Below are positions 10,330-64,000 of a stretch of DNA of 64,000 nucleotides, piece after piece; the first letter of the stretch is position 1; each line of letters starts with the position of its first letter. The DNA comes from Rhodothermales bacterium. Its GTDB lineage: Bacteria > Bacteroidota > Rhodothermia > Rhodothermales > Bin80. The translations under genes were made by a program, and so were the position numbers. The DNA is taken from NCBI GenBank assembly GCA_951812585.1, contig OX638318.1:2978810-3042809 (forward strand), written 5' to 3'. The notes beneath the pieces were generated by a model. The model saw only the letters and a list, made by a program, of their open reading frames with translations, was not told the DNA's origin and searched no databases.

Positions 10330-10401
<72 letters not shown>

Positions 10402-11693: not shown

Positions 11694-11766
<73 letters not shown>

Positions 11767-11786
11767 CAACCAAGGAGCTTATTTTC

Positions 11787-11987: not shown

Positions 11988-12010
11988 CAGACTAGACCTG
12001 GAGACATCCG

Positions 12011-47857: not shown

Positions 47858-48475
47858 ATGAGGCTGCCGCTCTTTCCACTTGGGGCCGTGCTTTATCCAT
47901 TGGAGCTGATGCCGCTGCATATCTTTGAAGCGCGGTATCGCACCATGGCGGCCCGGTGTCTTGATGACTGCATTCCCTTTGGCATACTCTGGATGGACGA
48001 AGGAAAGATGGCCTCCATCGGCTGCACTGCACGCATTCAACGCGTTCTGCAACGCTACAGCGACGGCCGATTGGACATCCTTGTCGAAGGAGAAAAGCGC
48101 TTTAAGGTTGCCCAGCTGTATGATAACCGTGCGTATCTGACTGGTGATGTCCACTACCTGGACGAGTCTGTTCCGGTTCCTGCGCAGCACAGCGTGAAGC
48201 GTGTGATCGCGCAGCATATGCGGCTCTTGGAGCTGGCTGGACGCAAGATAAGTCCTTCGGCCTACCGTCATACCAGCACCGTATCGTTTATCATTGGACG
48301 CAGCGCAGGCCTGTCACTGAAACAGAAGCAGGCGGTCTTGGAGATTCCCAGCGAGGCGCTGCGGATTCGCTACCTGATCGAGCATTTTGAGGCGCTCATT
48401 TCAAAGATTGAGACGACGCGGGCGCTGCGCAAGAAGATTCAGTCCAACGGTCACCTGGAGCGCGGCGACCTGTGA
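47858..48475 (+). CDS. LON N-terminal substrate-binding-domain protein
   Basis: MRLPLFPLGAVLYPLELMPLHIFEARYR is the typical start of stand-alone LON-domain proteins. The track start at 47846 is TTG. Confidence 0.8.
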   Translation: MRLPLFPLGAVLYPLELMPLHIFEARYRTMAARCLDDCIPFGILWMDEGKMASIGCTARIQRVLQRYSDGRLDILVEGEKRFKVAQLYDNRAYLTGDVHYLDESVPVPAQHSVKRVIAQHMRLLELAGRKISPSAYRHTSTVSFIIGRSAGLSLKQKQAVLEIPSEALRIRYLIEHFEALISKIETTRALRKKIQSNGHLERGDL

Positions 48476-49344: not shown

Positions 49345-49471
49345 AAACCCTTGGCGCAAACCGCAGTAAAAAGGTTTGCACACAATCGCCACGCCTATAC
49401 GCTCGGCTGCTACCGGACGCTAACACCTTCTTTCCGCGGATGCTCGGCATCTGCCCCTAATCGTCAGCCGC

Positions 49472-52400
49472 GTGCGATTTATTACGCTCTCCGCTCTCGC
49501 TGCCGCGTTTGCGCTTGCGGCCAACGCGCAGCAGGTCAGGTTTCGCCAGGTCGTACAGGAAGCGTCCCGGGCGGTCTATGAGCTCAACGCCGACTGGAGC
49601 AGTGCGCTAGGTGCCGAGGGGGCATCCCTGGATGCGGAAGCGCTGCGCCAACTGACGTACGGTGGACTGTTCGCGCGTACGGCAACCCTGCAGCTGCCCA
49701 CGCTGGAACAACCGGCAGTCCGGGTGCTTGTGGCGGACTACGATGAGATGCAGGCGCGTGTGCAGCCGGATGTGATCCATCCGCTGGCGCCACTGCCTGC
49801 GGAAGTGGTCGGTATCGGCCTGCATCGCAAGGTGCCTGCGGCCACGGTGGTGCTGCGCACCATGACGCTGGATGGCTCCGTACTACGGCGCTATCGGAGG
49901 CTGCTGGTGGAGGTGTCATGGGTGGATGGCCCAGTGGCCCGGCCTGCCAGCGATAACCCGCACCTTAGCGTGACAGAGAGCGTCCTCTCCACAGGTACGG
50001 TATTCAAAATTCCAATCACGCGCGAAGGCATCTACCAGATAGACCGGGCCTTCCTGGATGCACTGCCGGGGCTGAGCGTCAGTCCAGGTAGCATCGACCC
50101 GCGCGAAGTCAAGGTGTACGGCAATGGAGGCGCACCGGTACCAGCGCTCAACAGTGATCCGAGGCCTGCGGACCTTGTGGAAGTCCAGGTCTTTGTACAC
50201 GGCGGTGGCGACGGCTCGTTCGACAATGGTGATGCGGTATGGTTCTACGGGGCTGCCCCCCAGGGGTGGCATAGCGTTCACCTGCGCGACAGCCGAGGCG
50301 AGCTGCGCTTCGACAACGACGGCAACCCGATAGTAGAATGGCAGCACTACGTGCATCCGTTCTCCAACGAGAACTACTACTTCATCAAGATCGACGAACA
50401 GGAAAGTGCGGAGCTTGTTCAAGCTGCGTATCCCAATGTGGGTGGTGCCACTGCGTTGACGCAGATTGTTGGACGCCACTTTGTGGACTTTGATGAATTC
50501 ATGTGGGCCCAAGGCGGGAAGTCCGGCCATACATGGGTAAGCAGTCGCATCGAAGGCACCGTTCTCGCGGTTTTTGATGACCAGGTGTTGCCCGGACTTT
50601 TGGCTGGCAAAGTGACCTACAACGCCAGGCCGGCGATCCGAAGCAATCCGCCGGCTACCGTGCTGTTCATTTCTGATGGCGTCACGGTCGGCACGGCAAA
50701 CTTTGGCGCAACATCCGGCGATGCTACCGCGCCGATTGCGCGTACCGGCGTGGTAGCCTTTGATCAAGATGTGAGTGCCAATCAGCGTATATCCATGACC
50801 ATGGAGCTGGAAAGCAATGCGGGGGGTCCGCAGGCGGCGCTAGATTGGATTCGCGCGTACTATCCCATGGCGACAGCCCGGGATGAAGTGCCCGTGCGAT
50901 TGCATACGCCACTGATGACGGCAGGCACATTTACGATCACCCTGACGGGCTTCTCCAGTGAACCGTACGTTCTGGATGTCACCACGCCGGGAAGCTACGA
51001 GTGGCTCGGGATCGAACAGGCCGGCAGCGACTACCGCATACAGACAACGGCCAACGACATCCTGGTGCCGCGGGAGCTGATTGCCTTTGATGCGGGGCAG
51101 GTCACGTCCCTCGTTGCCGCAGACGTCTGTCCGGATGATCCCGGCTGCCGCGTGCCGCCCCAGAATCTGCACGGCATCACGACATATCCGGATTTTGTCA
51201 TTATCACCCCCAGTGTGTTTGCGCCGCAGGCAGCGGAACTGGCCGACATGCGGCGCAGTGAAGGCATGATCGTGGAAGTCGTGGACATCCTGCAGATCTA
51301 CAACGAGTTTTCGGGCGGACTTCAGGATCCGCGCGCGATCCGGGACTACCTGAAATTTCTTTATGATCGCGCACCCAGCGAATCAGAGCTGCTGCGGTAT
51401 GTGCTCCTCTTTGGCGATGGCCATTACAACTACCGCGCAATCAATCCGGAAAAGAACATCCTGCCGAACTGGATTCTGCCTTTCGAGACCGAGGAGTCGT
51501 TTATTCCCGAGATTTCGTACACGACCGATGACTACTTCGGCCTGTTGGACGACAACGAGGGGCTGTGGCCATTTACGCGCACGAGCTTCTACGGTGCGAG
51601 CGACTACCTGAACGAGCGCGTTGACCTCGGTATCGGTCGCCTTACGGTGATCACGCAGCAAGAGGCGCAAGCGGTGATCGACAAGATCAAGCACTACGAA
51701 AGCCCGCAGACGTTTGGTCCTTGGCGCAAGCGCTACGTATTCCTGGCCGACGACGGCCCGACCGGTCCTTCAGGCACGCAGGACGATAAGGACCTGCATA
51801 CCCAGAATACGGATGTTGTGGCGGAGGTAGTCGAGGAAGTCGCCCCCTATATTGACCAGAAGAAGATCTACGGCATCTCGTACCCGCGCGTGTTCAGGAA
51901 CGGGTGGAGGATTCCAAGGGCACGCGAGGATGTGCTGACGGCCTTGGCGGATGGCGTCTTAATGTTCAACTTCAGCGGTCACGGCGGGGAGAACGGTCTG
52001 GCGCAGGAAGACCTCTTCAATGCAGCGGATGCGACTTCGCTGACCAACTACGACATGCTCCCCATCTTCGTCACGGCCACATGCTCGTTTGGCCGGTGGG
52101 ACCAGTCCGATGCCCAAAGCGGGGCTGAGGAGCTGATGCTCAACAGCAGTGGCGGTGCCATCGCATTGCTGACAACCGTCCGCACGGTCTACACATCCGG
52201 CGATGCGACCAGCCTCAACGTCGGGCTCAATGTGGCACTGAACCAGGAACTCTTCCGGCGCGAGCCCGGCGGGCACATGCCACGCCTCGGAGACGCGCTT
52301 CGCCTGACCAAGAACACGCGGGTAGGCTACGAGGGTAACAACCGCAAATTCAACTTGCTGGGCGATCCCACCATGCGCGTGGGTGTTCCGGCGGCCCACG

Positions 52401-53491
52401 CCGTGGTCGAATCGGTCAATGGCGTGGACATAACCCAGGAAGCTACCGATCTAAAGGCGCTGGCACTGGTCACCATTGAAGGCCGCGTAGAGACGGCAGA
52501 CCAGCAGTTTGATGCTTCCTTTGATGGGACTGTCAGTCTGACCATCTTTGATGCGGAACGCCGCGTGATCATCCCGCCTGACATACGGCGGCATATGCCG
52601 AAGCCGTACTATCGCGTGCGGGAGGACCTCATCTGGGCGGGGCGCACCAGAGCCCGGTCCGGACGCTTCAAGGCCACTTTTGTCGTACCCAAGGACATTT
52701 CACACAGCAACAAGCCCGGCCGCATCTCGGTCTACGCAGCCAGCGGTCAAGAACATGCACAAGGATTCACGGAAAACATCATCGTGGGCGGCACCGCCAG
52801 CGAGATCCCGGACGACAATGATGGCCCGGTAATCGAGCTGTACCTGGGCGATGAGACGTTCGCTTCGGGCGGCCTTACGGCCAGTAGACCCGAAGTGCTG
52901 GCAAAGCTGTTCGATGAGAGCGGCATCAATACTGTCGGCGCTGGGGTCGGACACGAGATGCTGCTGATCATAGACGAGAACGAAGCCGATGCTGTCAATG
53001 TCGGTGCGCTCTATGAGAGCGAGGAAGATTCGTACCAGCGTGGCACCGTAGAATACCGCTTCAATGAATCCCTCTTGCCCGGCGCGCATACGATCACCAT
53101 GCGTGTGTGGGATGTGCTGAACAACTCCGCAACGAGCACACTGGAGTTTGTGGTCGCCGATGAGGCGCAGCTGCAGGTGCGTAATGTGCTGAACTACCCG
53201 AATCCCACCACGGGTCCGACACGCTTCGTCTTTGAGCATAACCAGCTGCCGGGCACGCTCGCGCGCGTGCAGGTCCGTATCTATTCGCTCAGCGGACGCC
53301 CCGTGCGGACGTTGGAAACAGAAGACGCACTGCCCGGCGGTGCCATGCAAATCATCTGGGACGGCACCGACGATGATTATGCCAGATTATCTCCAGGCGT
53401 GTATCTATACAGAGTGCGTGTGGAGGTTGATGCAGGGGACGGAGAGCGGCAGGTTTCGGAGGTCATTGAGAAGCTTGCCATCGTACGCTAA
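49472..53491 (+). CDS. porU: Type IX secretion system sortase PorU (gingipain-like C25 peptidase with its own CTD)
   Basis: Signal MRFITLSALAAAFALAANAQQ (GTG start). C25 catalytic His/Cys contexts FNFSGHGGENG and FVTATCSFGRWD. C-terminal CTD ...YPNPTTGPTRFVF...LSPGVYLYRVRV...KLAIVR. porV follows directly. Confidence 0.85.
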   Translation: MRFITLSALAAAFALAANAQQVRFRQVVQEASRAVYELNADWSSALGAEGASLDAEALRQLTYGGLFARTATLQLPTLEQPAVRVLVADYDEMQARVQPDVIHPLAPLPAEVVGIGLHRKVPAATVVLRTMTLDGSVLRRYRRLLVEVSWVDGPVARPASDNPHLSVTESVLSTGTVFKIPITREGIYQIDRAFLDALPGLSVSPGSIDPREVKVYGNGGAPVPALNSDPRPADLVEVQVFVHGGGDGSFDNGDAVWFYGAAPQGWHSVHLRDSRGELRFDNDGNPIVEWQHYVHPFSNENYYFIKIDEQESAELVQAAYPNVGGATALTQIVGRHFVDFDEFMWAQGGKSGHTWVSSRIEGTVLAVFDDQVLPGLLAGKVTYNARPAIRSNPPATVLFISDGVTVGTANFGATSGDATAPIARTGVVAFDQDVSANQRISMTMELESNAGGPQAALDWIRAYYPMATARDEVPVRLHTPLMTAGTFTITLTGFSSEPYVLDVTTPGSYEWLGIEQAGSDYRIQTTANDILVPRELIAFDAGQVTSLVAADVCPDDPGCRVPPQNLHGITTYPDFVIITPSVFAPQAAELADMRRSEGMIVEVVDILQIYNEFSGGLQDPRAIRDYLKFLYDRAPSESELLRYVLLFGDGHYNYRAINPEKNILPNWILPFETEESFIPEISYTTDDYFGLLDDNEGLWPFTRTSFYGASDYLNERVDLGIGRLTVITQQEAQAVIDKIKHYESPQTFGPWRKRYVFLADDGPTGPSGTQDDKDLHTQNTDVVAEVVEEVAPYIDQKKIYGISYPRVFRNGWRIPRAREDVLTALADGVLMFNFSGHGGENGLAQEDLFNAADATSLTNYDMLPIFVTATCSFGRWDQSDAQSGAEELMLNSSGGAIALLTTVRTVYTSGDATSLNVGLNVALNQELFRREPGGHMPRLGDALRLTKNTRVGYEGNNRKFNLLGDPTMRVGVPAAHAVVESVNGVDITQEATDLKALALVTIEGRVETADQQFDASFDGTVSLTIFDAERRVIIPPDIRRHMPKPYYRVREDLIWAGRTRARSGRFKATFVVPKDISHSNKPGRISVYAASGQEHAQGFTENIIVGGTASEIPDDNDGPVIELYLGDETFASGGLTASRPEVLAKLFDESGINTVGAGVGHEMLLIIDENEADAVNVGALYESEEDSYQRGTVEYRFNESLLPGAHTITMRVWDVLNNSATSTLEFVVADEAQLQVRNVLNYPNPTTGPTRFVFEHNQLPGTLARVQVRIYSLSGRPVRTLETEDALPGGAMQIIWDGTDDDYARLSPGVYLYRVRVEVDAGDGERQVSEVIEKLAIVR

Positions 53492-53512
53492 CAATCAAAA
53501 AAAAACACGGAA

Positions 53513-54703
53513 ATGCATTTTAGTTTTCGCAACCCTATGCGGGTCTCTGCCTTGACGCTGCTCTTGGCAGTCGGAACATGGTTTACGGCCCCAGCCCTGG
53601 CTCAGGTCGGTGGGACGGCCGTAGTGTTTCTGATGATCGAGCCGGACAGCCGCGCGGCCGGCATGGGCAACACGGGCGTGGCTATCGCCGACAACGCGAA
53701 TGCCATATTCTGGAACCCCGCAGGCCTGGCCGATCAGCGCGGCATGGAGTTCGGCATCACGCATTCCAACTGGCTCCCCGAATTCAACGCGGACCTCTAC
53801 TACGAGTACTTTGTTACCAAGCGCCATATCCGGGGTTTGGGGACGTTCGGCGGCCACCTGACCTACCTGTTTCTCGGGGAGCAGAACTATCGGGACGAAC
53901 AGAACAACGACCTGGGCACATTTAAGTCGTACGATATCGCCGCCGGGCTTTCGTGGGGGTTCAAGGCTACCAATAAGCTTTCCGTAGGGACCGGCATACG
54001 CCTGATCTATTCCAGCCTAGCCAACGTCAAAGTAGGAGCCCAACAGACCAATCCGGGCGTTTCCGCTGGCATGGATGTCGGCATGCTGTACAAGCTGCCA
54101 GAGTTCTGGCTGGGCCCGACCGCCGTGCAGTACAACGTCGGCTTGAACCTGGCCAACATGGGGCCCAAGATTCAGTATTCGGACAGCGAGCAGGGCGATC
54201 CCATACCAACCTACCTGCGGTTTGGGCATGCGATGACCTTTCAGTTTGACGATTACAACAAAATCACGCTAGCCAACGACTTTTCGAAGATGCTGGTGCG
54301 GCAGCGCATGACAGAAACCTGCATAGATCCCGCGGATACCGAAACCTGTACGGTGGGATACTATACGGATCCCTTCTACCAGGCCATTTTTTCGGCCTGG
54401 ACACCGATCTCAGTCAAAAGCGGTGCGGAGGACGACGAAGACCAGGTGCACGAGACGTTGTCCATTATTGACCAGCTGCTCATCGCTTCCGGCTTCGAAT
54501 ACTGGTACAAAAACCTGTTTGCTGCGCGCACTGGTTACTTTTACGAAAACCCATACAACGGAGACCGCCAGTTCTTGACCTTCGGCGCAGGCCTGCGTTA
54601 CAACATCGTGGGCGTGGACTTCTCCTATATATATGCGCTGGAAGAGAATCATCCACTCGCCAACACGATGCGGTTCTCGCTGCTGTTGAAACTTGGCCGC
54701 TAA
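53513..54703 (+). CDS. porV: T9SS outer-membrane channel/shuttle protein PorV (LptO)
   Basis: 396 aa with the signature EPDSRAAGMGNTGVAIADNANAIFWNPAGLA. It looks like a beta-barrel and sits immediately downstream of porU. Confidence 0.85.
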   Translation: MHFSFRNPMRVSALTLLLAVGTWFTAPALAQVGGTAVVFLMIEPDSRAAGMGNTGVAIADNANAIFWNPAGLADQRGMEFGITHSNWLPEFNADLYYEYFVTKRHIRGLGTFGGHLTYLFLGEQNYRDEQNNDLGTFKSYDIAAGLSWGFKATNKLSVGTGIRLIYSSLANVKVGAQQTNPGVSAGMDVGMLYKLPEFWLGPTAVQYNVGLNLANMGPKIQYSDSEQGDPIPTYLRFGHAMTFQFDDYNKITLANDFSKMLVRQRMTETCIDPADTETCTVGYYTDPFYQAIFSAWTPISVKSGAEDDEDQVHETLSIIDQLLIASGFEYWYKNLFAARTGYFYENPYNGDRQFLTFGAGLRYNIVGVDFSYIYALEENHPLANTMRFSLLLKLGR

Positions 54704-54711
54704 GGTGGCGC

Positions 54712-57633
54712 ATGCATATGGGCATTAGAGCCCTGTGCATAGTACTGTTGGCGAGCGGTGCAGCGCAAAGCGTCCCTGGGCAGACGCACTATGATGTTAT
54801 TGCGCTGCGGGTGGAGTTTCAGCCGGATACAACGCGCTACACCACCGGCGATGGCACCTTTGCAGGTCTGCACTGGGGCCTTGATCCCAAGGTGGATCCG
54901 TTGCCGCACGGCGCGCCCTACTTTGCGGCGCATCTTGCCTTTCTGGCAGACTATGTCGAGACCGTCTCCAGCGGGCATGCGACGTTGGCTGCCCATCTGG
55001 TGCCCCATGTTGTGCGCGTCGCGCACCAGATGGGAGCCTACAGTCCGGTTGGCCCAGAGGCGGACAGCGATGCGGAGCGCGTCAAGCTGGCACGCCTGGT
55101 CCAGGAGGCGTGGTCCCTAGCGGACACCAGCGGCTTCAGCTTCGCTGGTTTCACGCCTGAGCGCACTTTCTTCGTGCTCTTCCATGCGGGTATCGGTCGA
55201 GATGTGGAGCTGCTCGGCACAGTCTTGGAAAAGACGCCGCTGGACTTGCCATCGCTGTTCTTCAGCGAGGCTGCACTACAGCGGCTGGGCGTCACAGGAC
55301 TCGCCTACGGCGCCCTGCCCATCACGCATACCGCGATCATCCCGCGTACGGAGTCGCGCCTGGGCTACAACAGCATCACGCAGGATTCGCTGCTTTTGGA
55401 GCTCTCCATCAACGGCTTGCTGGCGTCCAGCTTTCTGAGCTATCTGGGCGTGCCCGATCTCTTCAACACGGCTACCGGCGCTTCCGCTATCGGTGGCTTT
55501 GGCGTTATGGATCCGCAGGGCATCTTTGCCTATGCGGGGCTGTTTCCGCCGGCACCCACGGCGTGGACGCGGGCGCGCCTGGGCTGGCATACACCCGTGC
55601 AGCTGTCTGGACAGGGCCCCGTGGAAGTCACACTGTCTACGGGTGAAATCGCGCGGGCGGGCATATCCGCGGCAGAGTACTTTCTGATTGAAAACCGCCA
55701 GCGTGACCCGGAGGGGGACGGGCTGGTGCTGCGCGTGTGGCAGGATGGCCAGGTGGTAGAGCAGCATGTGGAAGCCATCACCGATGACTTCAACCGCTTC
55801 AGCGTGGATGGCTTTGTGGGCGGCGTCGTGGTGGGCGTGGACCACTATGACTTTGCGCTGCCGGGCTGGGATGCGGACGGCAACCAGTATCAGGGCGGCA
55901 TGCTCATCTGGCATGTAGACGAGCAGGTGATCAAGACGGGCCAGATCAACGCCGATCCGCTTCGGCGCGGTGTGGCGCTCGAAGAAGCCGATGCGGCGCA
56001 AGACCTTGGCTTCGACAACACTGCCGGCGCGCCCTTCGACTTTTTCTTCGAGGGCAATCCTGTGCGCGCCGTTCTGCCGAGCGGCCGCGAAATCCGTTTC
56101 TACGAAAACCGTTTTGGACCTGCCACCACGCCATCGAGTGCTTCGAATGCCGGCGGCGAAAGTTTCATCGTGTTTGAGGACTTCTCTGCGCCAGGCCCCG
56201 AGATGCAATTCGTATACCGTATGGAGTCTGCGCACGGCATCAGCCTTGTTTCGGACATTGGCCTTGATGCCAGCATACCGCGCGGCAGCTCGGTTGGCGG
56301 CGGCAATGGATTCTCCTTTGTGTTCGAAAATAGCAGCACCCCGCGTGTGCATGTAGCGGCTGACGGGTCGGTGGCGACGGTACCATCACTGGTTCGCCCC
56401 CTGGCGGTGCAAAACACGCTCACAACTCTGGAAAGAGGCGCAACGGGCGCACTGGTACTGCGGACGTACGAAGTGCCTGGCCTGGCTGTGCGGCGCACCT
56501 ACACGCTGCCAGCGGCGCTGGCCGGTTACCGCATTAGGGGTCCACTTGTGGGCGCACAAGATGGCGCGGTGCATGTGCTGCTGGATAGTGCTGTGGAATC
56601 TGTCGTAGTAGTTTTGCGGGACGATGGCGCGCAAGCGGTGCACCCCTTACCGCCGGGCGGGCAGTCGCTGGCGGTGTCGCCCGAAGGTGCGGTCCTGGTG
56701 ACAGCGGCCACGTACGTGCGCATGATCACGGGCGAGGAACTCTGGACGTTTGACGAAGGTGGCCCCGCGGCCTATGCATCCAGTCGGGACGGCGTGTGGG
56801 GTGCCATGGTCCTGCCAGCGCGCAACCGTATCCGCATACTCGCCACCGGGCAGCGAACCTGGACCATTGATGTGGCCGCGTATGTCGGAGAGGTGCCGCT
56901 GGGCGAGTACGTCACGCTGGCTGATGTTGATGGCGACGATACGCCTGAGATCCTGTCCACCGCCGGGCCCTACCTGCTCGGCTTCACGCAGGGTGGTGCG
57001 ATGGCACCGGGCTTTCCGCTGCAGATGGATGTACCGCTAAGTACGCCGCCCCTGGCAGTCAGGCGATCATCAGGTCAGGCGGTAATAATCGTCGGGGCGC
57101 GCAGCGGTGTTGTCTACGCGGTGGAGCAGGGGCGTCCGATTCCTGGGTTTCCCCTGACGGCGGGGGCGAACCTGTCGGCAGCCCCCCGCCTATCGGAGGG
57201 GCACCTTGAGGTAGCGACCGGCGCGGGGCTGCTTCGCACGTATGCCATTGGAGAGACCGGAGCTGTGCTCTGGGGAGAGCGGCACGCGGGCCCAGGCAAT
57301 GCGGGGTTTGCTGCGCCTGTTGCGGGCGGCGAGCCGCCGAACGGCGAGCGGCTCCTGGTGGCAGGCGAATCTTACAACTGGCCCAATCCGATCCGCCGCG
57401 GCAACACCTTTGTGCGCCTGATGGCGACGGAAGACGCGACGGTGGAGCTCACAGTAGTGGATCTCGCCGGGACGGTGGTGCACGAAGCAGCCTTCGAGGT
57501 GCTTGGCGGCAGCCCCGCCGAATATCAGTGGCGTGCCACGGTCGCAAGCGGCCTGTACTATGCGCGCATACGAGCTACTGCCGCAGACGGACGCCAGGAC
57601 ACGCAACTGGTCAGGATGGCGGTGATACGATGA
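54712..57633 (+). CDS. T9SS cargo-type protein: M6 (InhA)-like domain with a degenerate active site, FG-GAP/propeller-like region and CTD
   Basis: M6-like blocks VIALRVEFQPD, FVLFHAGIGRD, EYFLIENRQ and GMLIWHVDE. The expected HExxHxLGLPDxYD position reads ASSFLSYLGVPDLFN. Also contains ADVDGDDTPEIL. C-terminal CTD NWPNPIRRGNTFVRL...SGLYYARI...RMAVIR. Confidence 0.7.
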   Translation: MHMGIRALCIVLLASGAAQSVPGQTHYDVIALRVEFQPDTTRYTTGDGTFAGLHWGLDPKVDPLPHGAPYFAAHLAFLADYVETVSSGHATLAAHLVPHVVRVAHQMGAYSPVGPEADSDAERVKLARLVQEAWSLADTSGFSFAGFTPERTFFVLFHAGIGRDVELLGTVLEKTPLDLPSLFFSEAALQRLGVTGLAYGALPITHTAIIPRTESRLGYNSITQDSLLLELSINGLLASSFLSYLGVPDLFNTATGASAIGGFGVMDPQGIFAYAGLFPPAPTAWTRARLGWHTPVQLSGQGPVEVTLSTGEIARAGISAAEYFLIENRQRDPEGDGLVLRVWQDGQVVEQHVEAITDDFNRFSVDGFVGGVVVGVDHYDFALPGWDADGNQYQGGMLIWHVDEQVIKTGQINADPLRRGVALEEADAAQDLGFDNTAGAPFDFFFEGNPVRAVLPSGREIRFYENRFGPATTPSSASNAGGESFIVFEDFSAPGPEMQFVYRMESAHGISLVSDIGLDASIPRGSSVGGGNGFSFVFENSSTPRVHVAADGSVATVPSLVRPLAVQNTLTTLERGATGALVLRTYEVPGLAVRRTYTLPAALAGYRIRGPLVGAQDGAVHVLLDSAVESVVVVLRDDGAQAVHPLPPGGQSLAVSPEGAVLVTAATYVRMITGEELWTFDEGGPAAYASSRDGVWGAMVLPARNRIRILATGQRTWTIDVAAYVGEVPLGEYVTLADVDGDDTPEILSTAGPYLLGFTQGGAMAPGFPLQMDVPLSTPPLAVRRSSGQAVIIVGARSGVVYAVEQGRPIPGFPLTAGANLSAAPRLSEGHLEVATGAGLLRTYAIGETGAVLWGERHAGPGNAGFAAPVAGGEPPNGERLLVAGESYNWPNPIRRGNTFVRLMATEDATVELTVVDLAGTVVHEAAFEVLGGSPAEYQWRATVASGLYYARIRATAADGRQDTQLVRMAVIR

Positions 57634-60600
57634 AGGTGGTGCGCATTGTTGTGATCGCGGCATTAGCCCTGGGCGTCCAATGCACCTGGGGTCAGGTATC
57701 GGTGTCCCTCATGGACTTTGCGCGGCCGGGCCTCGTGTGGCATGCCCTGGAAACGGAGCACTTCACGGTGCTGTATCACGAGGGCGGTTCGGGCGGCAGC
57801 AGCGCGCGCTCAGCGCACGAGGTCGCCCGCATTGCCGAAACGGTCTACGGCCCCATCACGGCGCTGTATGGCCACGAGCCCAGCGGCAAGGTCCACATCA
57901 TTCTGAAGGATTACGAAGACTACTCCAATGGAGCTGCGTACTTCTACGACAACAAGATTGAGATCTGGGCTCCGGCCTTGGATTCGCCCCTGCGCGGCGA
58001 CCATGCCTGGCTGGAGAATGTGGTAGCGCATGAGTTCACCCACATCGTGCAGGTGCAGGCGGCTATGAAGATGCCGCGGGCATTGCCTTTTGCCTACCTG
58101 CAGGTGTTGGATTATGAAAACATCAAGAGGCCCGATGTGCTCTACGGGTTTCCTGATGTGATTGTCAGCTATCCGATAGCAGGGCTGAGTAACCCAGCCT
58201 GGTTCGCAGAAGGCACGGCGCAGTATCAGCGTGCGTTCCTGTCTTATGATCGGTGGGATACGCACCGCGACATGATGCTGCGGACCCGGGTGCTGGCAGA
58301 TGAGGCGCTATCGCTTGCAGAGATGGGCAGCTTCTACTCCAAGAGCAGCTTGATGCGAGAAGGGGTATACAACCATGGCTATGCCTTTACACGGTATCTG
58401 GCCCGCACGTATGGCGAAGGGATCCTTGCTGATCTCAGCCGGGCGTTGGCTGCCTGGCGCCACTGGAATATGGAGCGGGCGCTCAGCGAAGTCACGGGCC
58501 AAAGCGCTGATGCAGTCTACGCAGGCTGGATGGACGGCCTGGAGGCTGCCTACGCGAGCAGCACCCGCACGCTGCGCAGCGCCCTCGTCCAGGGCGAATT
58601 GGTGGAAGCACAGGGCCATGCGAACTACTACCCGGCGTTTTCGCCCGACGGCACGCAGTTAGCATACGTCTCCAGTGGCAACAGGCACTACGGTCAGACC
58701 AGCCTCCATGTGCGCGATTTGGAAAGCGGTGACCAGGCGATCCTCGACCTGGGCACGGTTTCCTTGTCCGACTATACCTGTGCATGGGGGCACAGGCTCC
58801 GCCAGAATGTGGGCGGGGCGGTAACGTGGCGGCCTGATGGCGAGGCGCTGGTGTATGCGCGCCGCCGAGCGACGCGCGCCGGCTACTTGTATAGCGACCT
58901 GTACGAGATGACGCTGGACACGAAAAAGGAAGTTCGCCTGACACATAATGCGCGGGCATCGCACCCCGCGTTTGGGCCCGACGGGCATCGCATCGCGTTC
59001 GTTGCGCAGGTGGATGGCAGCACGAATCTGCGCATCTTCGACAAAGCCTCGGGCGCTATTTCTTCAGTCACGTCATTTGACGATGGCACGCAGGTCAGCG
59101 ATCCTGTATGGCACGGCGACTGGATCTATTTCGCACGCCGCGAGCCGGGTGCGCATGGGCGCGATGTGTGGCGTGCCAGGGCGGACGGCTCTGTCCTGGA
59201 AAGCGTGCTTTCCACGCCGGCAGATGAGCGCGCACCGGCATTCTCGGGGGACGTCTTGTACTACAGCAGCGATGCAACGGGCATCTACAACATCTATCGC
59301 CATGCGGGCGGTGCATCGGAGCAGCTGACACAAGTGCTGGGCGGCGCCTTCATGCCTGCGATACGGGCGGATGGGGCCATTGCCTATGCGCACTACCAGT
59401 GGGATGGCTACAAGATTGCGCTCTTGAGTCGACCCGCTCCGCTCCGGACATCCGTACAGTACCAAGTGCCGGAGATGCTGGGCAAGCCGATGGCGGAGCC
59501 GGACCACTCGCACCCCGTGGCAGCGGCCCTGATCGACACGACACGGCACTACCGGGCAGATTTCACGGAGTTCAGCTTTTTTCCGGTGCTGCGCCTGGAT
59601 CAGTATGTGTCGCGGCGGGCCGACCATCTGGACCGCAGGCTACCGCAGCGCAGTGCCGCGCGTACGCTCTTTCGCAACACCAAGCTTGGCTTCTATACCT
59701 CGAGCCGTGAAATGCTGGAGGGGATGAGCTTGTTTGCCGGGCTTCTGGTGGGACCTGCGTCACAGCCCGTCACCTCTTTCGGCGATGCCATCTCGCCATC
59801 CAACCTACTTTCGCTGGAGCGTGATGCCTTTCTGCTCTTTGACTACAAGCGCGGCCTGAATCTGGTGCCGACGCGCTGGTCTCCGCAGTTCTCGGTGGAA
59901 CTGTACAACATCCGCCGACGCGTAGAGAACGGGCTCTCGATAGAGGAATTTCCGTGTACGGCATGCTTTCCAGACACGACCCTGGTGGACCTCACGTACG
60001 CGCTCTGGGAGGGCAGTCTTTATGCCCGAAGCAAGGTGACGCGCAACGTAGTCATAGAGGCGGGGTATCGCTACAGCCCCTATCGCGTCACGACGGATCA
60101 GTTCTTCTCGCGCGAGCTGCTTACCTCCATTCCCAAGTCGGCGTCGCGTTATTTCATTGGCCGTACGCGCCTTTTGAAGGTGTATTTTGAGGCCCTGACC
60201 CCGCATCGCGAGGCAGATGTGCTGCCTCTTGGGATTACGGTCGATCTTGCGTACGAGCACGAAGCCGGTCGCTTGCTTGACCGGTTTGACATCCGCAATG
60301 GGCTACTGGTCCCGGTATACCAGAAGGAGCGCTTCCATCGCCTCAGGGTGGACGCCACGGCGGCCGCGCGGCTGCCGGGACGCGTGCGGGGCGCAGCGCA
60401 TGGGTTGGCTGTCCGCCTACGCGGGTCTGCGATTCTGGGAAAGAGCCTCGACAACTTCTACAACGACTATGTGGGCGGGCTCACGGCCGCGCGCGGGTAT
60501 CCGTTTTATGCCCTTGGCGGCAGCAAGACGTTGTGGTTCCAGGCCGCGTACACCATGCCGATCCTGCCTGACATCGGGATGCAGGTGCTCTCAGTGTATC

Positions 60601-60872
60601 TTGACAAGGCGTTCCTGCGGGTGTACACCGATGGGGCTGCTGTATGGCCTGGGTCGGGCGCATTGCGCCGGGACGCTGGTTTGGAGCTGCGCCTGAAGCT
60701 CGGTTCCTACTATCTGCTTCCCACCGCGCTGTTCGCCAGCGCAACGTACGGACTAGATGCGTTTGATTATGAGCTGGACGAAGGTTTTGTCACGCCTACG
60801 GGGGCGCGCACCGTCCGCTACGGGAAGGAGTGGCAGTGGCACTTTGGCGTCTTGTTCGGGTTTGATCTATAG
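57630..60872 (+). CDS. Multi-domain outer-membrane protein: MA-type HExxH peptidase domain, TolB/PD40 beta-propeller repeats and an Omp85-like C-terminal beta-barrel
   Basis: ATG 57630 overlaps the upstream TGA (ATGA). Signal MKVVRIVVIAALALGVQCTWGQ. HEFTH at 58029-58043 and a downstream WFAEGTAQY (gluzincin Glu). PD40-like repeats PAFSPDGTQLAYVS, WRPDGEALVY and PAFGPDGHRIAFVA. The C-terminal ~450 aa are beta-rich, with GGLTAARGYPF and a terminal ...FGVLFGFDL. Confidence 0.7.
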   Translation: MKVVRIVVIAALALGVQCTWGQVSVSLMDFARPGLVWHALETEHFTVLYHEGGSGGSSARSAHEVARIAETVYGPITALYGHEPSGKVHIILKDYEDYSNGAAYFYDNKIEIWAPALDSPLRGDHAWLENVVAHEFTHIVQVQAAMKMPRALPFAYLQVLDYENIKRPDVLYGFPDVIVSYPIAGLSNPAWFAEGTAQYQRAFLSYDRWDTHRDMMLRTRVLADEALSLAEMGSFYSKSSLMREGVYNHGYAFTRYLARTYGEGILADLSRALAAWRHWNMERALSEVTGQSADAVYAGWMDGLEAAYASSTRTLRSALVQGELVEAQGHANYYPAFSPDGTQLAYVSSGNRHYGQTSLHVRDLESGDQAILDLGTVSLSDYTCAWGHRLRQNVGGAVTWRPDGEALVYARRRATRAGYLYSDLYEMTLDTKKEVRLTHNARASHPAFGPDGHRIAFVAQVDGSTNLRIFDKASGAISSVTSFDDGTQVSDPVWHGDWIYFARREPGAHGRDVWRARADGSVLESVLSTPADERAPAFSGDVLYYSSDATGIYNIYRHAGGASEQLTQVLGGAFMPAIRADGAIAYAHYQWDGYKIALLSRPAPLRTSVQYQVPEMLGKPMAEPDHSHPVAAALIDTTRHYRADFTEFSFFPVLRLDQYVSRRADHLDRRLPQRSAARTLFRNTKLGFYTSSREMLEGMSLFAGLLVGPASQPVTSFGDAISPSNLLSLERDAFLLFDYKRGLNLVPTRWSPQFSVELYNIRRRVENGLSIEEFPCTACFPDTTLVDLTYALWEGSLYARSKVTRNVVIEAGYRYSPYRVTTDQFFSRELLTSIPKSASRYFIGRTRLLKVYFEALTPHREADVLPLGITVDLAYEHEAGRLLDRFDIRNGLLVPVYQKERFHRLRVDATAAARLPGRVRGAAHGLAVRLRGSAILGKSLDNFYNDYVGGLTAARGYPFYALGGSKTLWFQAAYTMPILPDIGMQVLSVYLDKAFLRVYTDGAAVWPGSGALRRDAGLELRLKLGSYYLLPTALFASATYGLDAFDYELDEGFVTPTGARTVRYGKEWQWHFGVLFGFDL

Positions 60873-60892
60873 CATACTGCCGCCTCGTTGCC

Positions 60893-61522
60893 ATGACAGG
60901 ACTCGTTGTTGTTGCCGCCTGCATGATTGCCATCGGCATTGTCTTTCTGTGGCTTCTGCTGCATCGCAATGCTGGGCTCCGGCCCCGGGGCGGACTGGAA
61001 TGGACGGGCACCATCATGTCGGGCCTCCTCATCGTGTGCGCAGGATTTCTTATGGCGCTGGCCTTGGCTGGCGAAGAGCAGGAAGATACGGCCCGGCGTG
61101 GTGTTGGCCGGCCTGCGAGCGACATCGCCTTCAAGCTGCTTTCCAACGATGCGCCGCAGCGGCTGTCGGACTACAGCGGCCAGGTCGTGCTGCTCAACTT
61201 CTGGGCCACCTGGTGCCAGCCCTGCATCACCGAGCTACCCGAGCTAGATAAGCTCCACGATGATTATGCGGAGCGGGGCCTGGCTGTTGTTACGCTTTCC
61301 GATGAACCACGGGACGTGTTGGATATGTTCGAAGATCTGTGGCCCAAGCAGACAGTCTCGGGGTATGTTGCGCTGGATGCGGTGCCCGAGCCGTACTACA
61401 GCGAGCTCGTCCTGGGTCGGCCCATCTCGTATGTGATTGACCGCGAAGGCGTCGTGCGCGAGTTCATTGTGGGAGCAGGCAATTACGACATGTTTGAGCG
61501 CTTCATCCGCCCCTATATCTGA
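60893..61522 (+). CDS. TlpA-family thiol:disulfide oxidoreductase (membrane-anchored thioredoxin-like)
   Basis: N-terminal TM segments and the LLNFWATWCQPC CxxC motif. Confidence 0.85.
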   Translation: MTGLVVVAACMIAIGIVFLWLLLHRNAGLRPRGGLEWTGTIMSGLLIVCAGFLMALALAGEEQEDTARRGVGRPASDIAFKLLSNDAPQRLSDYSGQVVLLNFWATWCQPCITELPELDKLHDDYAERGLAVVTLSDEPRDVLDMFEDLWPKQTVSGYVALDAVPEPYYSELVLGRPISYVIDREGVVREFIVGAGNYDMFERFIRPYI

Positions 61523-62538
61523 TGATGGTTCGCCGAGTGCTGCTTTTTGCTAGGTGGGTGCTGCCCTGTGCTGTCCTTATCCTGAAGACACCCGTGGCCA
61601 CAGCGCAGGTGCGCCCTGCATCACCGCCGGCTGCGTATGCGCCAGCGGCGCTGCGAGCGGCGTTGGCCTTTGGACCAGTATCAGGCCCGATGTACAAGGG
61701 CCAGGCGGCACGGAGCGTGCCCCTTGCCTTCGGGCTGTCCGCACTCGTGCCAGGAGCAGGACAGGTCTATAACAGGGAATGGGTCAAGGCTGCGGCTGCC
61801 GTTGCGATCGAGCTGGGCGTGCTCTGGGGATGGTCCTCCTGGCGTGAGAAGGGTGCGGAGGGTCGCGACGCGTACCAGGCTATGGCCCACATGCACTGGA
61901 GCCCGGTGCGATATTCGCTGTGGCTGAATGACTACACCGTCTACTTGAACACCTTGCCGGGCGGGCCGCCCGTTGACGCGGAGCCGATCGCGATCGACCC
62001 TGCGCTGTTCAGTCTGGACTTCTCGCAACCGGGTGGTTGGAGCACGGTGCAGCAGTTAGCCGTGCGGCGCTTGATTCTGGACATACGCGCGCTGGAAACA
62101 CGCGTATACCACCCGCAGACTGGCGCGCGCTTTTCGCACCAGCTTCCCTTCTTTGCCGAGCAGCAGTACTACGAGCTCATAGGCAAGTACTTCCAGTTCG
62201 CTCCCGGATGGGATGACTACTATGCGCTGACCAGGGATGGACGGGCCACCTGGATTGATGCGGATGGCAATTTCATTGACTCTATTGATCCGGAGGCGAC
62301 GGCTGCGGACGGCACCAAGGCGTTTGCATCTGATCGCTTCTTCCACTATGCAGCGCGTCATGGCGAGGCCAACGACTACTTCCGGCGTGCATCCCGGGTC
62401 ACGATACTGCTGTTTGCCAACCATCTCCTGACTGCTGTGGAAGCTGCGATCTCAGCCAAGCTCCAAAATGATCGGCTGCGTGTGCGCGTCGGCCAGCATC
62501 AAGCAGAGCCGGCGCTGGTGCTGCAGCTCAGCTTCTAG
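61522..62538 (+). CDS. DUF5683-like protein
   Basis: SALVPGAGQVYNREWVKAAA matches the PG.GQ.YN..YWK core remembered for DUF5683. Its ATG overlaps the TlpA stop by 1 nt. Confidence 0.6.
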   Translation: MMVRRVLLFARWVLPCAVLILKTPVATAQVRPASPPAAYAPAALRAALAFGPVSGPMYKGQAARSVPLAFGLSALVPGAGQVYNREWVKAAAAVAIELGVLWGWSSWREKGAEGRDAYQAMAHMHWSPVRYSLWLNDYTVYLNTLPGGPPVDAEPIAIDPALFSLDFSQPGGWSTVQQLAVRRLILDIRALETRVYHPQTGARFSHQLPFFAEQQYYELIGKYFQFAPGWDDYYALTRDGRATWIDADGNFIDSIDPEATAADGTKAFASDRFFHYAARHGEANDYFRRASRVTILLFANHLLTAVEAAISAKLQNDRLRVRVGQHQAEPALVLQLSF

Positions 62539-62713
62539 TCGGCATGTCCCGTGCCAACGGGGCGGACACGCGCATGCCTGCCCTTGCGGCGCGTGATCCA
62601 GGCAGCGCAGCTTTAAAGCGGCATACCCCGATCCCAGGGGGCCAAGCCCCTGACGGATGCCCACATTGGGAGCTCCGTAGTATATTGCGGCCGAACAAAT
62701 TCTTATCGAGTCT

Positions 62714-64000
62714 ATGAAGTGGCACAAGAAGCTCCACAACCAGATCATCCTCGGCCTCGTCTTGGGTCTCGTCTACGGGGTCGTGTCGGCAAGTTTCGGT
62801 TGGGGCCAGTTCACCAGCAACTGGATCGCGCCGTTTGGTGCGATTTTTCTGCGGGCGCTCTTTCTGATTGCCGTGCCACTGGTCTTGGCATCGATCATCA
62901 CGGGCGTAGCGTCGCTGTCTGATACGCACAAGCTGTCGCGAATCGGCGGCAAGACGATCGGAATCTATATCGCGACCACCGTGGTGGCACTCATCATAGG
63001 GCTTGCGATTGTCAACCTGATGCGCCCCGGCGACGCCGTGCCCGCTGAAGTGCAGGAGCAGTTGACTGCAGAATACAGTGCAATGGCAGAAGAGCGTGCC
63101 GAATTCGCTACGGACGCCATGGGGGAGCGCGGCCCGCTGCAGGCCATCGTAGACATGGTGCCGAACAATATCTTCGGTTCCGCTTCCAGCAATCGCAACA
63201 TGCTGCAGGTAGTCTTTGTGGCCATACTCTTCGGTATTGCCCTGCTCATGCTGCCAGCGGAAAGGGCGCAGCCATTGCTCTCATTCTTTGAGAGCCTCAA
63301 CGACATGGTGATCAAGATCGTGGAGATCATCATGAAGGTGGCACCGATCGGAGTCTTTGCGCTTTTGGCGGATACGTTTACGCAAGTGTCGCAGGACAAC
63401 CTGGGAGGGCTGTGGCAGCTTATGGAAGCACTGGGCTTCTACATGGTGGCGGTGCTTCTGGGACTGGTCTTGCATGTGAGCATCACGTACACGACGATCC
63501 TCAAGTTCTTGACCCCGATGACGCTGAAGCGGTTCTTCCTGGGCATTGCGCCAGCGCAGCTCGTTGCGTTTTCAACATCGTCCAGCGGTGCCACCTTGCC
63601 CGTAACCATGGAGGTTGCGGAAAAGAACTTGGGCGTGTCGGAAGAGGTATCGTCGTTTGTGCTGCCGCTGGGAGCCACCATCAACATGGATGGCACGGCG
63701 CTTTACCAGGCTGTGGCGGCCGTGTTTATTGCGCAGACACTTGGCATAGCCTTGGGCCTGGGTGCACAGCTCGAGATCATTCTGCTGGCTGTTTTGGCGT
63801 CCATCGGCACCGCCGCCGTTCCGAGCGCTGGCATCATCATGCTGGTTATCATCCTTCAGTCCGTAGGCGTGCCTGCTGCGGGGATCGCGTTGATCCTAGG
63901 CGTGGACCGTATACTGGACATGTGCCGCACTGTCTGTAACATCACGGGTGATGCCACCGTCGCAACCCTGGTTGCCTCATCGGAGAATCAGTTGGACGTG
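62714..64000 (+). CDS. Dicarboxylate/amino acid:cation symporter (DAACS family; partial, continues past the window end)
   Basis: Absent from the ORF track because no stop lies in the window. My translation gives MKWHKKLHNQIILGLVLGLVYG..., AFSTSSSGATLPVTME and LPLGATINMDGTALYQAVAAVFIAQ, which are GltP/DctA-type motifs. Confidence 0.88.
   Translation, partial: MKWHKKLHNQIILGLVLGLVYGVVSASFGWGQFTSNWIAPFGAIFLRALFLIAVPLVLASIITGVASLSDTHKLSRIGGKTIGIYIATTVVALIIGLAIVNLMRPGDAVPAEVQEQLTAEYSAMAEERAEFATDAMGERGPLQAIVDMVPNNIFGSASSNRNMLQVVFVAILFGIALLMLPAERAQPLLSFFESLNDMVIKIVEIIMKVAPIGVFALLADTFTQVSQDNLGGLWQLMEALGFYMVAVLLGLVLHVSITYTTILKFLTPMTLKRFFLGIAPAQLVAFSTSSSGATLPVTMEVAEKNLGVSEEVSSFVLPLGATINMDGTALYQAVAAVFIAQTLGIALGLGAQLEIILLAVLASIGTAAVPSAGIIMLVIILQSVGVPAAGIALILGVDRILDMCRTVCNITGDATVATLVASSENQLDV

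Follow-up and report, generated by a model that had tools for sequence, protein, structure and literature searches.

The WD40-like Omp85 subfamily ("WD40-Omp85") was catalogued by Heinz & Lithgow (2014, Front Microbiol 5:370; PMC4104836) and was restated in 2024 (PMC11358297). Its approximately 95 members in Table S3 were described as having a BamA/TamA barrel, a TolB propeller and, under "best aminopeptidase hit", a match of the M1 or M9 type (aminopeptidase/collagenase folds). The propeller was discussed there as a BamA-BamB-like fusion and the peptidase appears only in the supplementary table; the T9SS gene context and the function of WD40-like Omp85 were not addressed (PMC4104836). In the literature, we found neither a functional study of, or experiment on, any member of the subfamily nor a description of its T9SS gene context. 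PlpD and the metallophosphoesterase-Omp85 ("Metallo") subfamily also have an N-terminal enzyme fused to an Omp85 barrel, and the function of these fusions is poorly understood. In PlpD the enzyme is a patatin lipase and a POTRA domain is retained; the Metallo subfamily carries PF00149, whereas the protein described here has an MA-clan peptidase and a propeller.

The window (the whole stretch of 64,000 nucleotides that was analysed) encodes a protein, here called the target, that we assign with high confidence, as to both family and fold, to the outer membrane proteins, with a signal peptide, an MA-clan zinc peptidase, a TolB-like PD40 propeller and a C-terminal 16-stranded Omp85-type barrel (Table 1). 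It belongs to the WD40-like Omp85 subfamily, where it was placed by the Table S3 descriptions, the shared three-part layout without POTRA and the fold matches; the barrel and propeller matches were reproduced independently and the peptidase was found by HMM. The preliminary description had called this architecture unusual, unless it proved to belong to a widespread family that had already been characterised. The design has been described before: the family is both common (4361 proteins at E ≤ 1e-10 in the wider family around one distant member) and catalogued, but it is not functionally characterised. The sequence features named in that description (HEFTH, WFAEGTAQY, the PD40 repeats, the RGY element, FGVLFGFDL and the ATGA junction) were all found where it had placed them.

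Table 1 Coordinates of the target, its domains and motifs, and the neighbouring genes in the window
Feature	Position	Strand	Evidence or remark
PorU, T9SS sortase (C25 peptidase)	49472..53491	+	NF033707 950.8 bits (cut-off 420); Pfam Peptidase_C25 332.6 bits
PorV, T9SS outer-membrane shuttle/channel protein	53513..54703	+	NF033710 277.9 bits (cut-off 250); Pfam PorV 117.6 bits
M6i, T9SS-dependent M6-like inactivated metalloprotease, T9SS cargo	54712..57633	+	NF052323 660.4 bits (cut-off 600)
Target gene, WD40-like Omp85 subfamily	57630..60872	+	1080 aa
Signal peptide, aa 1-21	57630..57692	+	MKVVRIVVIAALALGVQCTWG, then Gln; cleavage predicted before Gln22
MA-clan (gluzincin-type) zinc peptidase domain, aa ~35-317	57732..58580	+	Peptidase_MA_2 matches in homologs, conserved residues
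HEFTH, aa 134-138	58029-58043		
WFAEGTAQY, aa 191-199	58200-58226		Contains Glu194
TolB-like PD40 beta-propeller, aa ~320-600	58587..59429	+	Pfam PD40, TolB matches by sequence and fold
PAFSPDG	58632-58652		PD40 motif
WRPDG	58827-58841		PD40 motif
PAFGPDG	58965-58985		PD40 motif
Variable linker, aa ~601-640	59430..59549	+	Poorly conserved, mean 0.23
Omp85-type 16-stranded outer-membrane beta-barrel, aa ~641-1080	59550..60869	+	AF2 and Foldseek
Loop-6-like element YVGGLTAARGYPFYALGG	60468..60521	+	Between predicted strands 11 and 12 (position from models)
GGLTAARGY	60474-60500		Within loop-6-like element
Strand-13 motif YTDGAAVW	60624..60647	+	Compare Omp85 [FY]xDxG..W type
FGVLFGFDL	60843-60869		C-terminal
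TlpA-like thiol-disulfide oxidoreductase (AhpC-TSA/Redoxin)	60893..61522	+	Pfam AhpC-TSA 2e-16
DUF5683-domain protein, last conserved module gene	61522..62538	+	Pfam DUF5683 32.4 bits (cut-off 26.7)

The ATG of the target overlaps the TGA (57631-57633) of the upstream ORF in the sequence ACGATGAAGG (ATGA). An alternative GTG at 57528 would lengthen the ORF; the ATG was favoured because it is followed by an N-terminal signal peptide and because the 1080-aa product was called independently on 8 public contigs. The family consensus in the signal peptide region is AxAQ, with Gln22 at least 90 % conserved in a 52-sequence alignment, and cleavage before this residue was deduced from this pattern. 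More than 1700 database homologs were found, and the top 120 share 48-100 % identity with the target and, except for two, at least 95 % query coverage. Relatives are encoded in at least 511 stretches of a one-genome-per-species collection, with full-length matches down to 35 % identity. The target is thus a real, conserved gene. Its full-length AF2 model (pLDDT 76.6, pTM 0.78) shows three domains.

The genes around the target are closely packed, separated by 21, 8 and 20 nt or, at two junctions, overlapping. The upstream M6i gene encodes a protein without HExxH (HVDEQ occurs at aa 401-405) and with a weak match to the C-terminal sorting domain (Por_Secre_tail, 15.4 bits). When loci with enough flanking sequence were counted, M6i was directly upstream of the target homolog in 70 of 71, down to 35 % identity, and PorV and PorU were upstream in 61/62 and 52/58, respectively; the DUF5683 gene was downstream in 65/67. 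The lone locus breaking the synteny adjoins SprA. Five loci of one Balneolaceae/Rhodohalobacter-type group keep PorV, M6i, the target homolog and DUF5683 without an adjacent PorU. PorV, an M6i counterpart, the target homolog and DUF5683 also recur in three distant loci (from KSB1, LCP-89 and Zhuqueibacterota records), where the M6i counterparts carry FG-GAP and Por_Secre_tail. The orthologous group is therefore a fixed member of a (PorU)-PorV-M6i-target-DUF5683 module across many FCB-group lineages.

This fixed place makes the target a candidate accessory of the T9SS sorting/attachment machinery, and a functional link to T9SS is likely. We also infer that the target may associate physically with PorV or M6i. 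The functional pair with the dead-protease CTD protein, as suggested in the preliminary description, held as far as gene linkage goes (the 70 loci and the three distant homologs); the shared function is a proposal. Overall, we lean somewhat towards reading the target as an active metallopeptidase that is anchored in the outer membrane, probably faces the periplasm and acts together with the T9SS sorting module.

The peptidase of the target itself scores 21.7-26.5 bits against Peptidase_MA_2 (26.5 for the isolated domain), which is below the Pfam cut-off of 32.4. All 27 homologous N-terminal domains analysed match this Pfam family (best E-value 8.9e-12), in agreement with the earlier comparison of the HExxH region to Peptidase_MA_2. 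Among 73 homologs (35-77 % identity), H134, E135, H138 and E194 are each at least 97 % conserved, and the peptidase is the most conserved domain of the protein (mean 0.66). Glu194 is likely the third zinc ligand, and the peptidase is probably catalytically active, judging from these residues.

The central part of the protein is a PD40 propeller resembling that of TolB, as the noted TolB-type repeats had indicated (Pfam PD40 69.8 bits, cut-off 20.9; 1.5e-19). Grouping of the predicted strands gives about six blades, with pLDDT mostly 88-95. Its PDB sequence matches are nearly all TolB, and Foldseek also places TolB first (E-value 8e-12), followed by S9 peptidase and tricorn propellers. However, its score with the TolB equivalog model is 72 bits where the cut-off is 343, and TolB is a soluble periplasmic protein whereas the propeller of the target lies inside an outer-membrane protein and has a different gene neighbourhood. 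No POTRA domain was found in the linker, which has low pLDDT and no beta-alpha-alpha-beta-beta unit in the predicted secondary structure.

These domains could also belong to a general envelope quality-control protease, BepA-like and fused to its own Omp85 anchor, that degrades misfolded or stalled OMPs in the periplasm; the adjacency to PorV would then reflect co-expression with large outer-membrane T9SS parts and not a task specific to T9SS. BepA is a zinc HExxH protease that works with an Omp85 machine (BAM) on the periplasmic face, which is the position proposed for the target. We use it as a working analogy: BepA is an M48 peptidase with a TPR domain and is not fused to a barrel, the peptidase family of the target differs, and no sequence relation was seen between the two. 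Peptidase and propeller combinations usually act on unfolded peptides, as in tricorn and S9 peptidases. The accessions in Table S3 presumably include Rhodothermus, Salinibacter, Ignavibacterium and Melioribacter proteins as well as proteins of Anaeromyxobacter, Geobacter and Vibrio, which are not known to have T9SS. Apparent non-T9SS bacteria would thus hold members, with several copies per genome, and the basic activity of the family cannot then be T9SS-specific. Moreover, Heinz & Lithgow suggested periplasmic proteolytic quality control for a related Omp85-metallo subfamily. Against this, the linkage to PorV, M6i and DUF5683 is stable over the range of identity given above and in the three more distant homologs, even the single exception adjoins SprA, and it is difficult to see why the genes would stay together in this way unless a specific function connects them. 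We consider general quality control unlikely.

The last ~440 aa of the target form a 16-stranded barrel in AF2, so that the Omp85-like C-terminus proposed earlier was borne out. Modelled alone, this domain has 16 long strands (pLDDT 82.2, pTM 0.78), and its top 50 PDB matches in Foldseek are all Omp85 (BamA, TamA, FhaC, CdiB and Toc75), the best being 9n2d_A (E-value 5e-8), while 8xnb_A reaches a TMt of 0.65. The RGY-type element lies where loop 6 of Omp85 is found, with G949, G950 and Y957 at least 97 % conserved (73 sequences). Rhodothermales have ARGY at this motif, Balneolales MRSY and Ignavibacteria MK[GA]Y. In place of YTDGAAVW, which we take to be the counterpart of the Omp85 strand-13 motif, Ignavibacteria have [YF]GD[VLI]GNAW and Balneolales have F[FA]E[TA]GNGW. 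The target shares with BamA and TamA, the canonical Omp85 insertases, the 16 strands, a motif of the [R/K]-G-Y type in loop 6, xDxG..W in strand 13 and a C-terminal strand that is hydrophobic and rich in aromatic residues. It differs in its enzyme and propeller and in lacking POTRA; neither a PF01103 match in the Pfam scan of the protein nor a PDB sequence match with a profile of the barrel region was found, so that predicted fold, motifs and transitive homology are the basis for the Omp85 assignment. Three distant homologs with the same three-domain layout (P0173, P0182 and P0233) exceed the PF01103 cut-off.

We do not attribute insertase activity to the target. A dedicated insertase, translocase or anchor would use the barrel to insert or dock a T9SS component, for example to hold M6i as PorQ holds PorZ, while the propeller would tether the complex to a partner in the periplasm or inner membrane, for instance the DUF5683 protein, and the peptidase would have a minor or regulatory role. 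The retained Omp85 hallmark motifs, the single PorV-type barrel in the module versus two large surface proteins (PorU and M6i), the five loci without adjacent PorU and the role of TolB-type propellers as protein-binding platforms speak for it. The PorQ-PorZ half of the P. gingivalis T9SS attachment complex is similar in that a barrel gene and a large propeller-containing sorting-domain cargo lie beside PorU and PorV, and FG-GAP propeller matches are found in the distant M6i counterparts. This is a working analogy and no homology is claimed; PorQ has a 14-stranded barrel of the PorV kind and not of the Omp85 kind, and the NCBIfam scan of M6i gave no PorZ family. We regard this explanation as improbable, since the peptidase and not the barrel is the most conserved part, with essentially invariant catalytic residues, no POTRA domain is there to receive substrates, and Ignavibacteria have Lys in place of the loop-6 Arg.

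By comparison with all Omp85 proteins whose topology is known, the peptidase and propeller probably face the periplasm. In the models, the long-loop/short-turn pattern and the position of loop 6 fit the canonical Omp85 topology with a periplasmic N-terminus. In a surface-exposed protease module, by contrast, both domains would reach the cell surface via or alongside the protein's own barrel, and of the target and the pseudo-protease M6i, one would bind the substrate and the other cut it, which is in essence the idea of the preliminary description. M6i, as T9SS cargo, is expected on the cell surface, its gene adjoins that of the target almost without exception (overlapping or abutting in the window, L031 and L054), and an active protease beside a catalytically dead one suggests complementary roles. 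The first proposal for PlpD reportedly had its enzyme domain carried across the outer membrane in the same way, but later work is said to have located the patatin domain in the periplasm. A 16-stranded barrel is also ill suited to carrying a folded peptidase and propeller of ~600 aa, every Omp85 N-terminal domain whose location is known lies in the periplasm, and no T9SS sorting domain was found in the target by Pfam and NCBIfam scans. Surface exposure is thus quite improbable.

The target is a Sec-exported protein anchored by its barrel, with the intact gluzincin-type peptidase (HEFTH and Glu194) and the propeller in place of POTRA domains. Under the preferred reading of a periplasm-facing peptidase linked to T9SS, it may act as a tethered protease located below PorV or next to it. 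The propeller would limit entry to the active site, as it does in tricorn and S9 peptidases, and the polypeptides processed or cleared may be T9SS-related ones (stalled cargo, sorting domains or its M6i partner). This specific role is tentative and rather doubtful. In P. gingivalis, PorU cleaves the T9SS signal on the cell surface, a location that sits uneasily with the clearing of sorting domains by a protease in the periplasm.

PorU is the first gene of the tightly packed cluster. At its other end, the ATG of the DUF5683 gene overlaps the stop of the redoxin gene, which occupies this position only in Rhodothermales-type loci (up to L028, plus L044).

The ORF of 1080 codons at 57630-60872 (the target gene) encodes a new member of a catalogued, functionally uncharacterised subfamily of outer membrane proteins, the WD40-like Omp85 proteins. 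When the Omp85/TpsB superfamily was split into ten subfamilies, one of them ("WD40-Omp85" or "WD40-like") was without POTRA domains, and its approximately 95 members were listed in Table S3 with a BamA/TamA barrel match, a TolB match and a "best aminopeptidase hit", which was either M1 (1z5h, 4kxd, 3qnf) or M9 collagenase (4ar1, 4ar9) (Heinz & Lithgow 2014, PMC4104836). Some Omp85 subfamilies were later said to carry "divergent WD40 and peptidase domains" (2024, PMC11358297). The target shares with the WD40-like proteins a PD40/WD40 propeller (TolB as the best match) that precedes an Omp85 barrel in the chain, the lack of POTRA, and an N-terminal MA-clan peptidase-like domain. Membership was assigned from the architecture and domain matches compared with the descriptions of listed accessions (e.g. 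D0MEQ5, Q2RZZ9 and I0AKC8). We take the Table S3 accession prefixes to stand for Rhodothermus marinus, Salinibacter ruber, Ignavibacterium and Melioribacter, and also for Anaeromyxobacter, Geobacter and Vibrio.

The preliminary description had read the protein as a peptidase, a propeller and an Omp85-like barrel, and this reading is borne out by domain matches, fold matches and the catalogued subfamily. It had also called the architecture unusual, which was mistaken, as the architecture by itself is nothing new and was catalogued in 2014. A rare or novel fusion was rejected because at least 511 relatives were found in addition to the members in Table S3. No functional study of any WD40-like Omp85 member was found in the literature, and searches on subfamily function, DUF5683 and the T9SS in these phyla gave nothing relevant beyond PMC4104836 and PMC11358297. 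NCBIfam release 20 holds a model for the product of the gene directly 5' of the target gene, a T9SS-dependent M6-like inactivated metalloprotease (M6i), and none that captures the target.

Features of the window discussed in the text
Feature	Position	Strand	Remark
ORFs of 1284 and 1441 aa	14894-23115		just upstream of the Wzi-like ORF
Wzi-like ORF	23395-25122		575 aa; Caps_assemb_Wzi, 39 bits
ORF of 775 aa	26390-28717	-	putative cell-wall enzyme fusion
PorU	49472-53491		
PorV	53513-54703		
M6i	54712-57633		NCBIfam "T9SS-dependent M6-like inactivated metalloprotease", 660 bits; no HExxH
Alternative GTG start	57528		longer target ORF
Target	57630-60872	+	1080 codons
Gln22	57693-57695		directly after predicted signal-peptide cleavage
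HEFTH	58029-58043		aa 134-138
WFAEGTAQY	58200-58226		E194 within WFAEG
Three PD40-type motifs	within 58632-58985		
TCAxGH insertion	58749-58808		aa 374-393, propeller blade 2
C776-T-A-C779	59955-59966		CxxC pair, predicted loop between barrel strands 5/6
GGLTAARGY	60474-60500		
FGVLFGFDL	60843-60869		
TlpA-like redoxin	60893-61522		
DUF5683 protein	61522-62538		338 aa

The ATG of the target shares bases with the TGA of the M6i ORF (junction sequence ACGATGAAGG). An alternative GTG start gives a longer ORF; the ATG start yields a signal peptide and agrees with the 1080-aa product called on eight public contigs. All motifs named in the preliminary description (HEFTH, WFAEGTAQY, GGLTAARGY, FGVLFGFDL and three of PD40 type) were found at the positions reported there. 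When one genome per species was scanned, at least 511 relatives were obtained and the best 80 loci were kept. The nearest among them are Rhodothermales MAG loci with 70-76% identity, and the window is accordingly a metagenome contig of Rhodothermales type. The residue following the predicted cleavage site (consensus AxA|Q) is at least 90% conserved in 52 close homologs. The Bacteroidota "Q-rule" describes an N-terminal pyroglutamate after signal-peptide cleavage, and Gln22 of the target fits it.

The N-terminal domain (aa ~35-317) matches Peptidase_MA_2 (PF13485) with 21.7 bits when the full protein is scanned and with 26.5 bits when the domain is taken alone, both below the cut-off of 32.4. 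The family matches missing from the target were handled by scanning many homologs instead. All 27 homologous N-domains, from Rhodothermales to Ignavibacteria, match Peptidase_MA_2 (best E-value 8.9e-12), four of them also touch the Peptidase_M9 (collagenase) model, and the Peptidase_MA_2 score reaches 42.7 bits among distant homologs. In an alignment of 73 sequences (35-77% identity), H134, E135, H138 and E194 are each at least 97% conserved. E163, the alternative third zinc ligand, is less conserved than E194, and we infer that E194 is the preferred one. The conserved HExxH and downstream Glu are the pattern of a predicted active gluzincin. Mean conservation in the same 73 sequences is highest in the peptidase domain (0.66), followed by the barrel (0.55) and the propeller (0.50). 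Set beside this ranking, a barrel-centred role, in which the target would serve in docking or as an insertase, appears improbable.

The middle domain (aa ~320-600) is a propeller with a PD40 match of 69.8 bits, over the Pfam cut-off. TolB is its top PDB match by sequence and by fold (Foldseek E-value 8e-12), and the propellers of S9 peptidases and tricorn rank after TolB in the fold search with the target model. Precomputed Pfam families are PF26549 (Tricorn_N) and PF26550 (Tricorn_2nd). The predicted strands, when grouped, point to about six blades. The TolB equivalog model TIGR02800 scores 72 bits on the target against a cut-off of 343.15, the aligned part is the propeller only, and there is no full-length TolB match including the N-terminal TolA-binding domain.

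A PDB sequence search with the full target returned propellers only, nearly all of them TolB. The profile of the peptidase domain gave nothing meaningful against PDB sequences, and the 27-sequence barrel profile gave zero matches, so a comparison of folds was needed. Foldseek with the whole target model found propeller proteins only; therefore, the barrel (aa ~641-1080) was modelled alone. The AF2 model of aa 632-1080 (pLDDT 82.2, pTM 0.78) has 16 long strands, the last of which forms the C-terminus of the protein. The best 50 Foldseek matches of the barrel in PDB all belong to the Omp85 superfamily (BamA, TamA, FhaC, CdiB and Toc75), including the BamA proteins of F. johnsoniae (E-value 5e-8), D. 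radiodurans (TMt 0.65), B. thetaiotaomicron and E. coli. According to the model, the region is a 16-stranded transmembrane barrel of Omp85 fold.

Hallmarks of Omp85 proteins are the (V/I)RG(Y/F) of loop 6, between strands 11 and 12, and [FY]xDxG in strand 13. In the target, a conserved GGLxxARGYPF (ARGYPF at aa 954-959) lies in the long loop that joins predicted strands 11 and 12, and YTDGAAVW (aa 999-1006; YxDxG..W) lies in predicted strand 13. Both motifs are kept across 27 sequences, with R replaced by K and G by S or A in some lineages, and they correspond in position and form to Omp85 motifs 3 and 4.

The target has no match to the Pfam Omp85 family (PF01103), and no barrel family was matched in the Pfam and NCBIfam scans. 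When the barrel alone was searched with HMMER against 1.84 billion cluster representatives, only 179 clusters were obtained, and nearly all of their full-length members are ~1000-1200 aa long with a C-terminal barrel. Three of nine distant homologs pass the PF01103 cut-off of 24 bits, namely P0173 (29.9 bits; barrel-search E-value 1.2e-22), P0182 (37.1 bits; 3.2e-20) and P0233 (25.1 bits; 4.3e-12), with Peptidase_MA_2 and PD40 retained. They therefore provide a transitive sequence link between the target barrel and Omp85. No POTRA match was found in the target with Pfam, and the barrel is preceded by a 40-residue linker that is variable, poorly conserved and unstructured, without POTRA-like secondary structure. 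Because it has no POTRA domain, the target is not an orthologue of BamA, TamA or TpsB. A BamA gene was sought in the window for comparison, and the ten large ORFs that were scanned did not include one.

Long loops and short turns alternate in the barrel in the canonical manner, and loop 6 is in its canonical place, which would put the N-terminus in the periplasm as in other Omp85 proteins. By this model and analogy, the peptidase and propeller should face the periplasm. With this orientation, a surface-exposed protease acting together with M6i is considered distinctly improbable.

The target gene belongs to a run of genes from PorU to DUF5683, with gaps of 21, 8 and 20 nt and two overlaps. Promoter and terminator scans of 48000-64000 gave counts equal to the shuffled expectation; the operon structure is read from gene spacing only. 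Neighbours of the kept loci were searched by tblastn in loci with enough flank. M6i is found directly upstream of the homolog in 70 of 71 loci, PorV upstream in 61/62, PorU upstream in 52/58 and the DUF5683 gene downstream in 65/67.

At five loci of one Balneolaceae/Rhodohalobacter-type group (L049, L052, L054, L066 and L072), the homolog is accompanied by PorV, M6i and DUF5683, with no PorU directly upstream; in these, PorU must either have its gene at another place or be missing. At L054, four ORFs of unrelated sizes occupy the PorU place. The sole locus without any of the PorV, M6i, PorU and DUF5683 neighbours is from an Ignavibacteria MAG (L076). There, the homolog (9080-12196, +) is divergent from a 2194-aa SprA (2326-8910, -; SprA_N 130 bits) at a distance of ~170 bp. 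SprA is the T9SS translocon, and L076 was thus rejected as a counter-example to the T9SS linkage.

More distant homologs were found with P0182, whose barrel shares 33% identity with that of the target, as the query. The loci from LCP-89, KSB1 and Zhuqueibacterota (L084, L085 and L086; names from records) have the order PorV, a ~1000-aa protein, the homolog and DUF5683, and PorU lies upstream at one of them. FG-GAP propeller and Por_Secre_tail matches are found in the ~1000-aa protein, the distant counterpart of M6i, at these loci, with a faint M6 match at one. The association of the target gene with the T9SS is conserved across distant lineages and near-invariant. It is strong comparative evidence for a predicted functional tie to T9SS sorting. 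A general quality-control protease of BepA type seems unlikely beside this gene context.

The target itself lacks the type A or type B C-terminal sorting domain of T9SS cargo, as judged from an NCBIfam scan without Por_Secre_tail and a Pfam scan without a CTD-family match. At aa 401-405, the expected place of an HExxH, M6i reads HVDEQ. The M6i orthologs at L031 and L054 are likewise without HExxH, which makes loss of this catalytic motif a conserved trait.

Tentatively, we propose that PorV, M6i, the target and DUF5683 may constitute an unrecognised ancient T9SS sorting/attachment module of the sampled non-Bacteroidia FCB lineages (Rhodothermales, Balneolales, Ignavibacteria, KSB1, LCP-89 and Zhuqueibacterota). 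Such a module would stand in for the half of the attachment complex that PorQ/PorZ form in P. gingivalis, with the target as its catalytic Omp85-anchored subunit. Propellers joined to peptidases (tricorn, S9) typically limit access to unfolded or short substrates; this, with the putative periplasmic N-terminus, leads to a tethered periplasm-facing protease as the most likely reading. The target would be anchored in the outer membrane by its barrel, with peptidase and propeller toward the periplasm, and stationed at the T9SS sorting module, where it may process or clear T9SS-related polypeptides. Removal of sorting domains by PorU takes place on the cell surface, which makes the clearing of stalled periplasmic cargo or the maturing of module components more plausible than the recycling of cleaved sorting domains.

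If such a PorQ/PorZ-replacing module exists, the target would give the Omp85 family its first member with a T9SS role, and a function would be assigned to the WD40-like subfamily for the first time. Through the linkage to PorV, a pseudo-protease cargo and DUF5683, one large orthologous group in this orphan subfamily now has a first concrete functional hypothesis. The near-invariant context adds value because it offers both a testable function for the subfamily and a candidate new T9SS part outside model organisms. To our knowledge, detailed study of the T9SS has been confined almost entirely to Porphyromonas and Flavobacterium; in the other FCB lineages sampled, a conserved extra module that includes a predicted active protease anchored by an Omp85 barrel would alter the parts list. 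Recent hints of BAM-T9SS links come from F. johnsoniae, whose bamA locus also holds T9SS genes (PMC12611786), and the module would add to them. No paper was found that mentions the T9SS gene context of the subfamily, a T9SS requirement or complex membership.

Several smaller features were also observed. Rhodothermales have the low-pLDDT propeller insertion with its conserved TCAxGH motif; Balneolales carry unrelated inserts in its place, and Ignavibacteria lack it. A "cysteine-switch" regulating the protease was rejected as a general mechanism, as the insertion is limited to Rhodothermales. Rhodothermales and Balneolales share the conserved CxxC pair of the barrel, which is missing from Ignavibacteria. 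The gene for a TlpA-like thiol-disulfide oxidoreductase lies 3' of the target in Rhodothermales-type loci only, and a redox link between the two is possible.

The DUF5683 protein has a signal-like N-terminus, a strongly hydrophobic stretch near aa 293-311 and a C-terminus (...LVLQLSF) which resembles the C-terminal signal of outer membrane proteins. In L084, L085 and L086, DUF5683 is followed by a further unannotated gene of 258-265 aa, which was not seen at that place in the window. Elsewhere in the window, the Wzi-like ORF matches a capsule-assembly outer membrane protein. The 775-aa ORF has a beta-lactamase/transpeptidase-like domain (224 bits) and an M15 D-Ala-D-Ala dipeptidase domain (119 bits), and its product looks like a cell-wall enzyme fusion.
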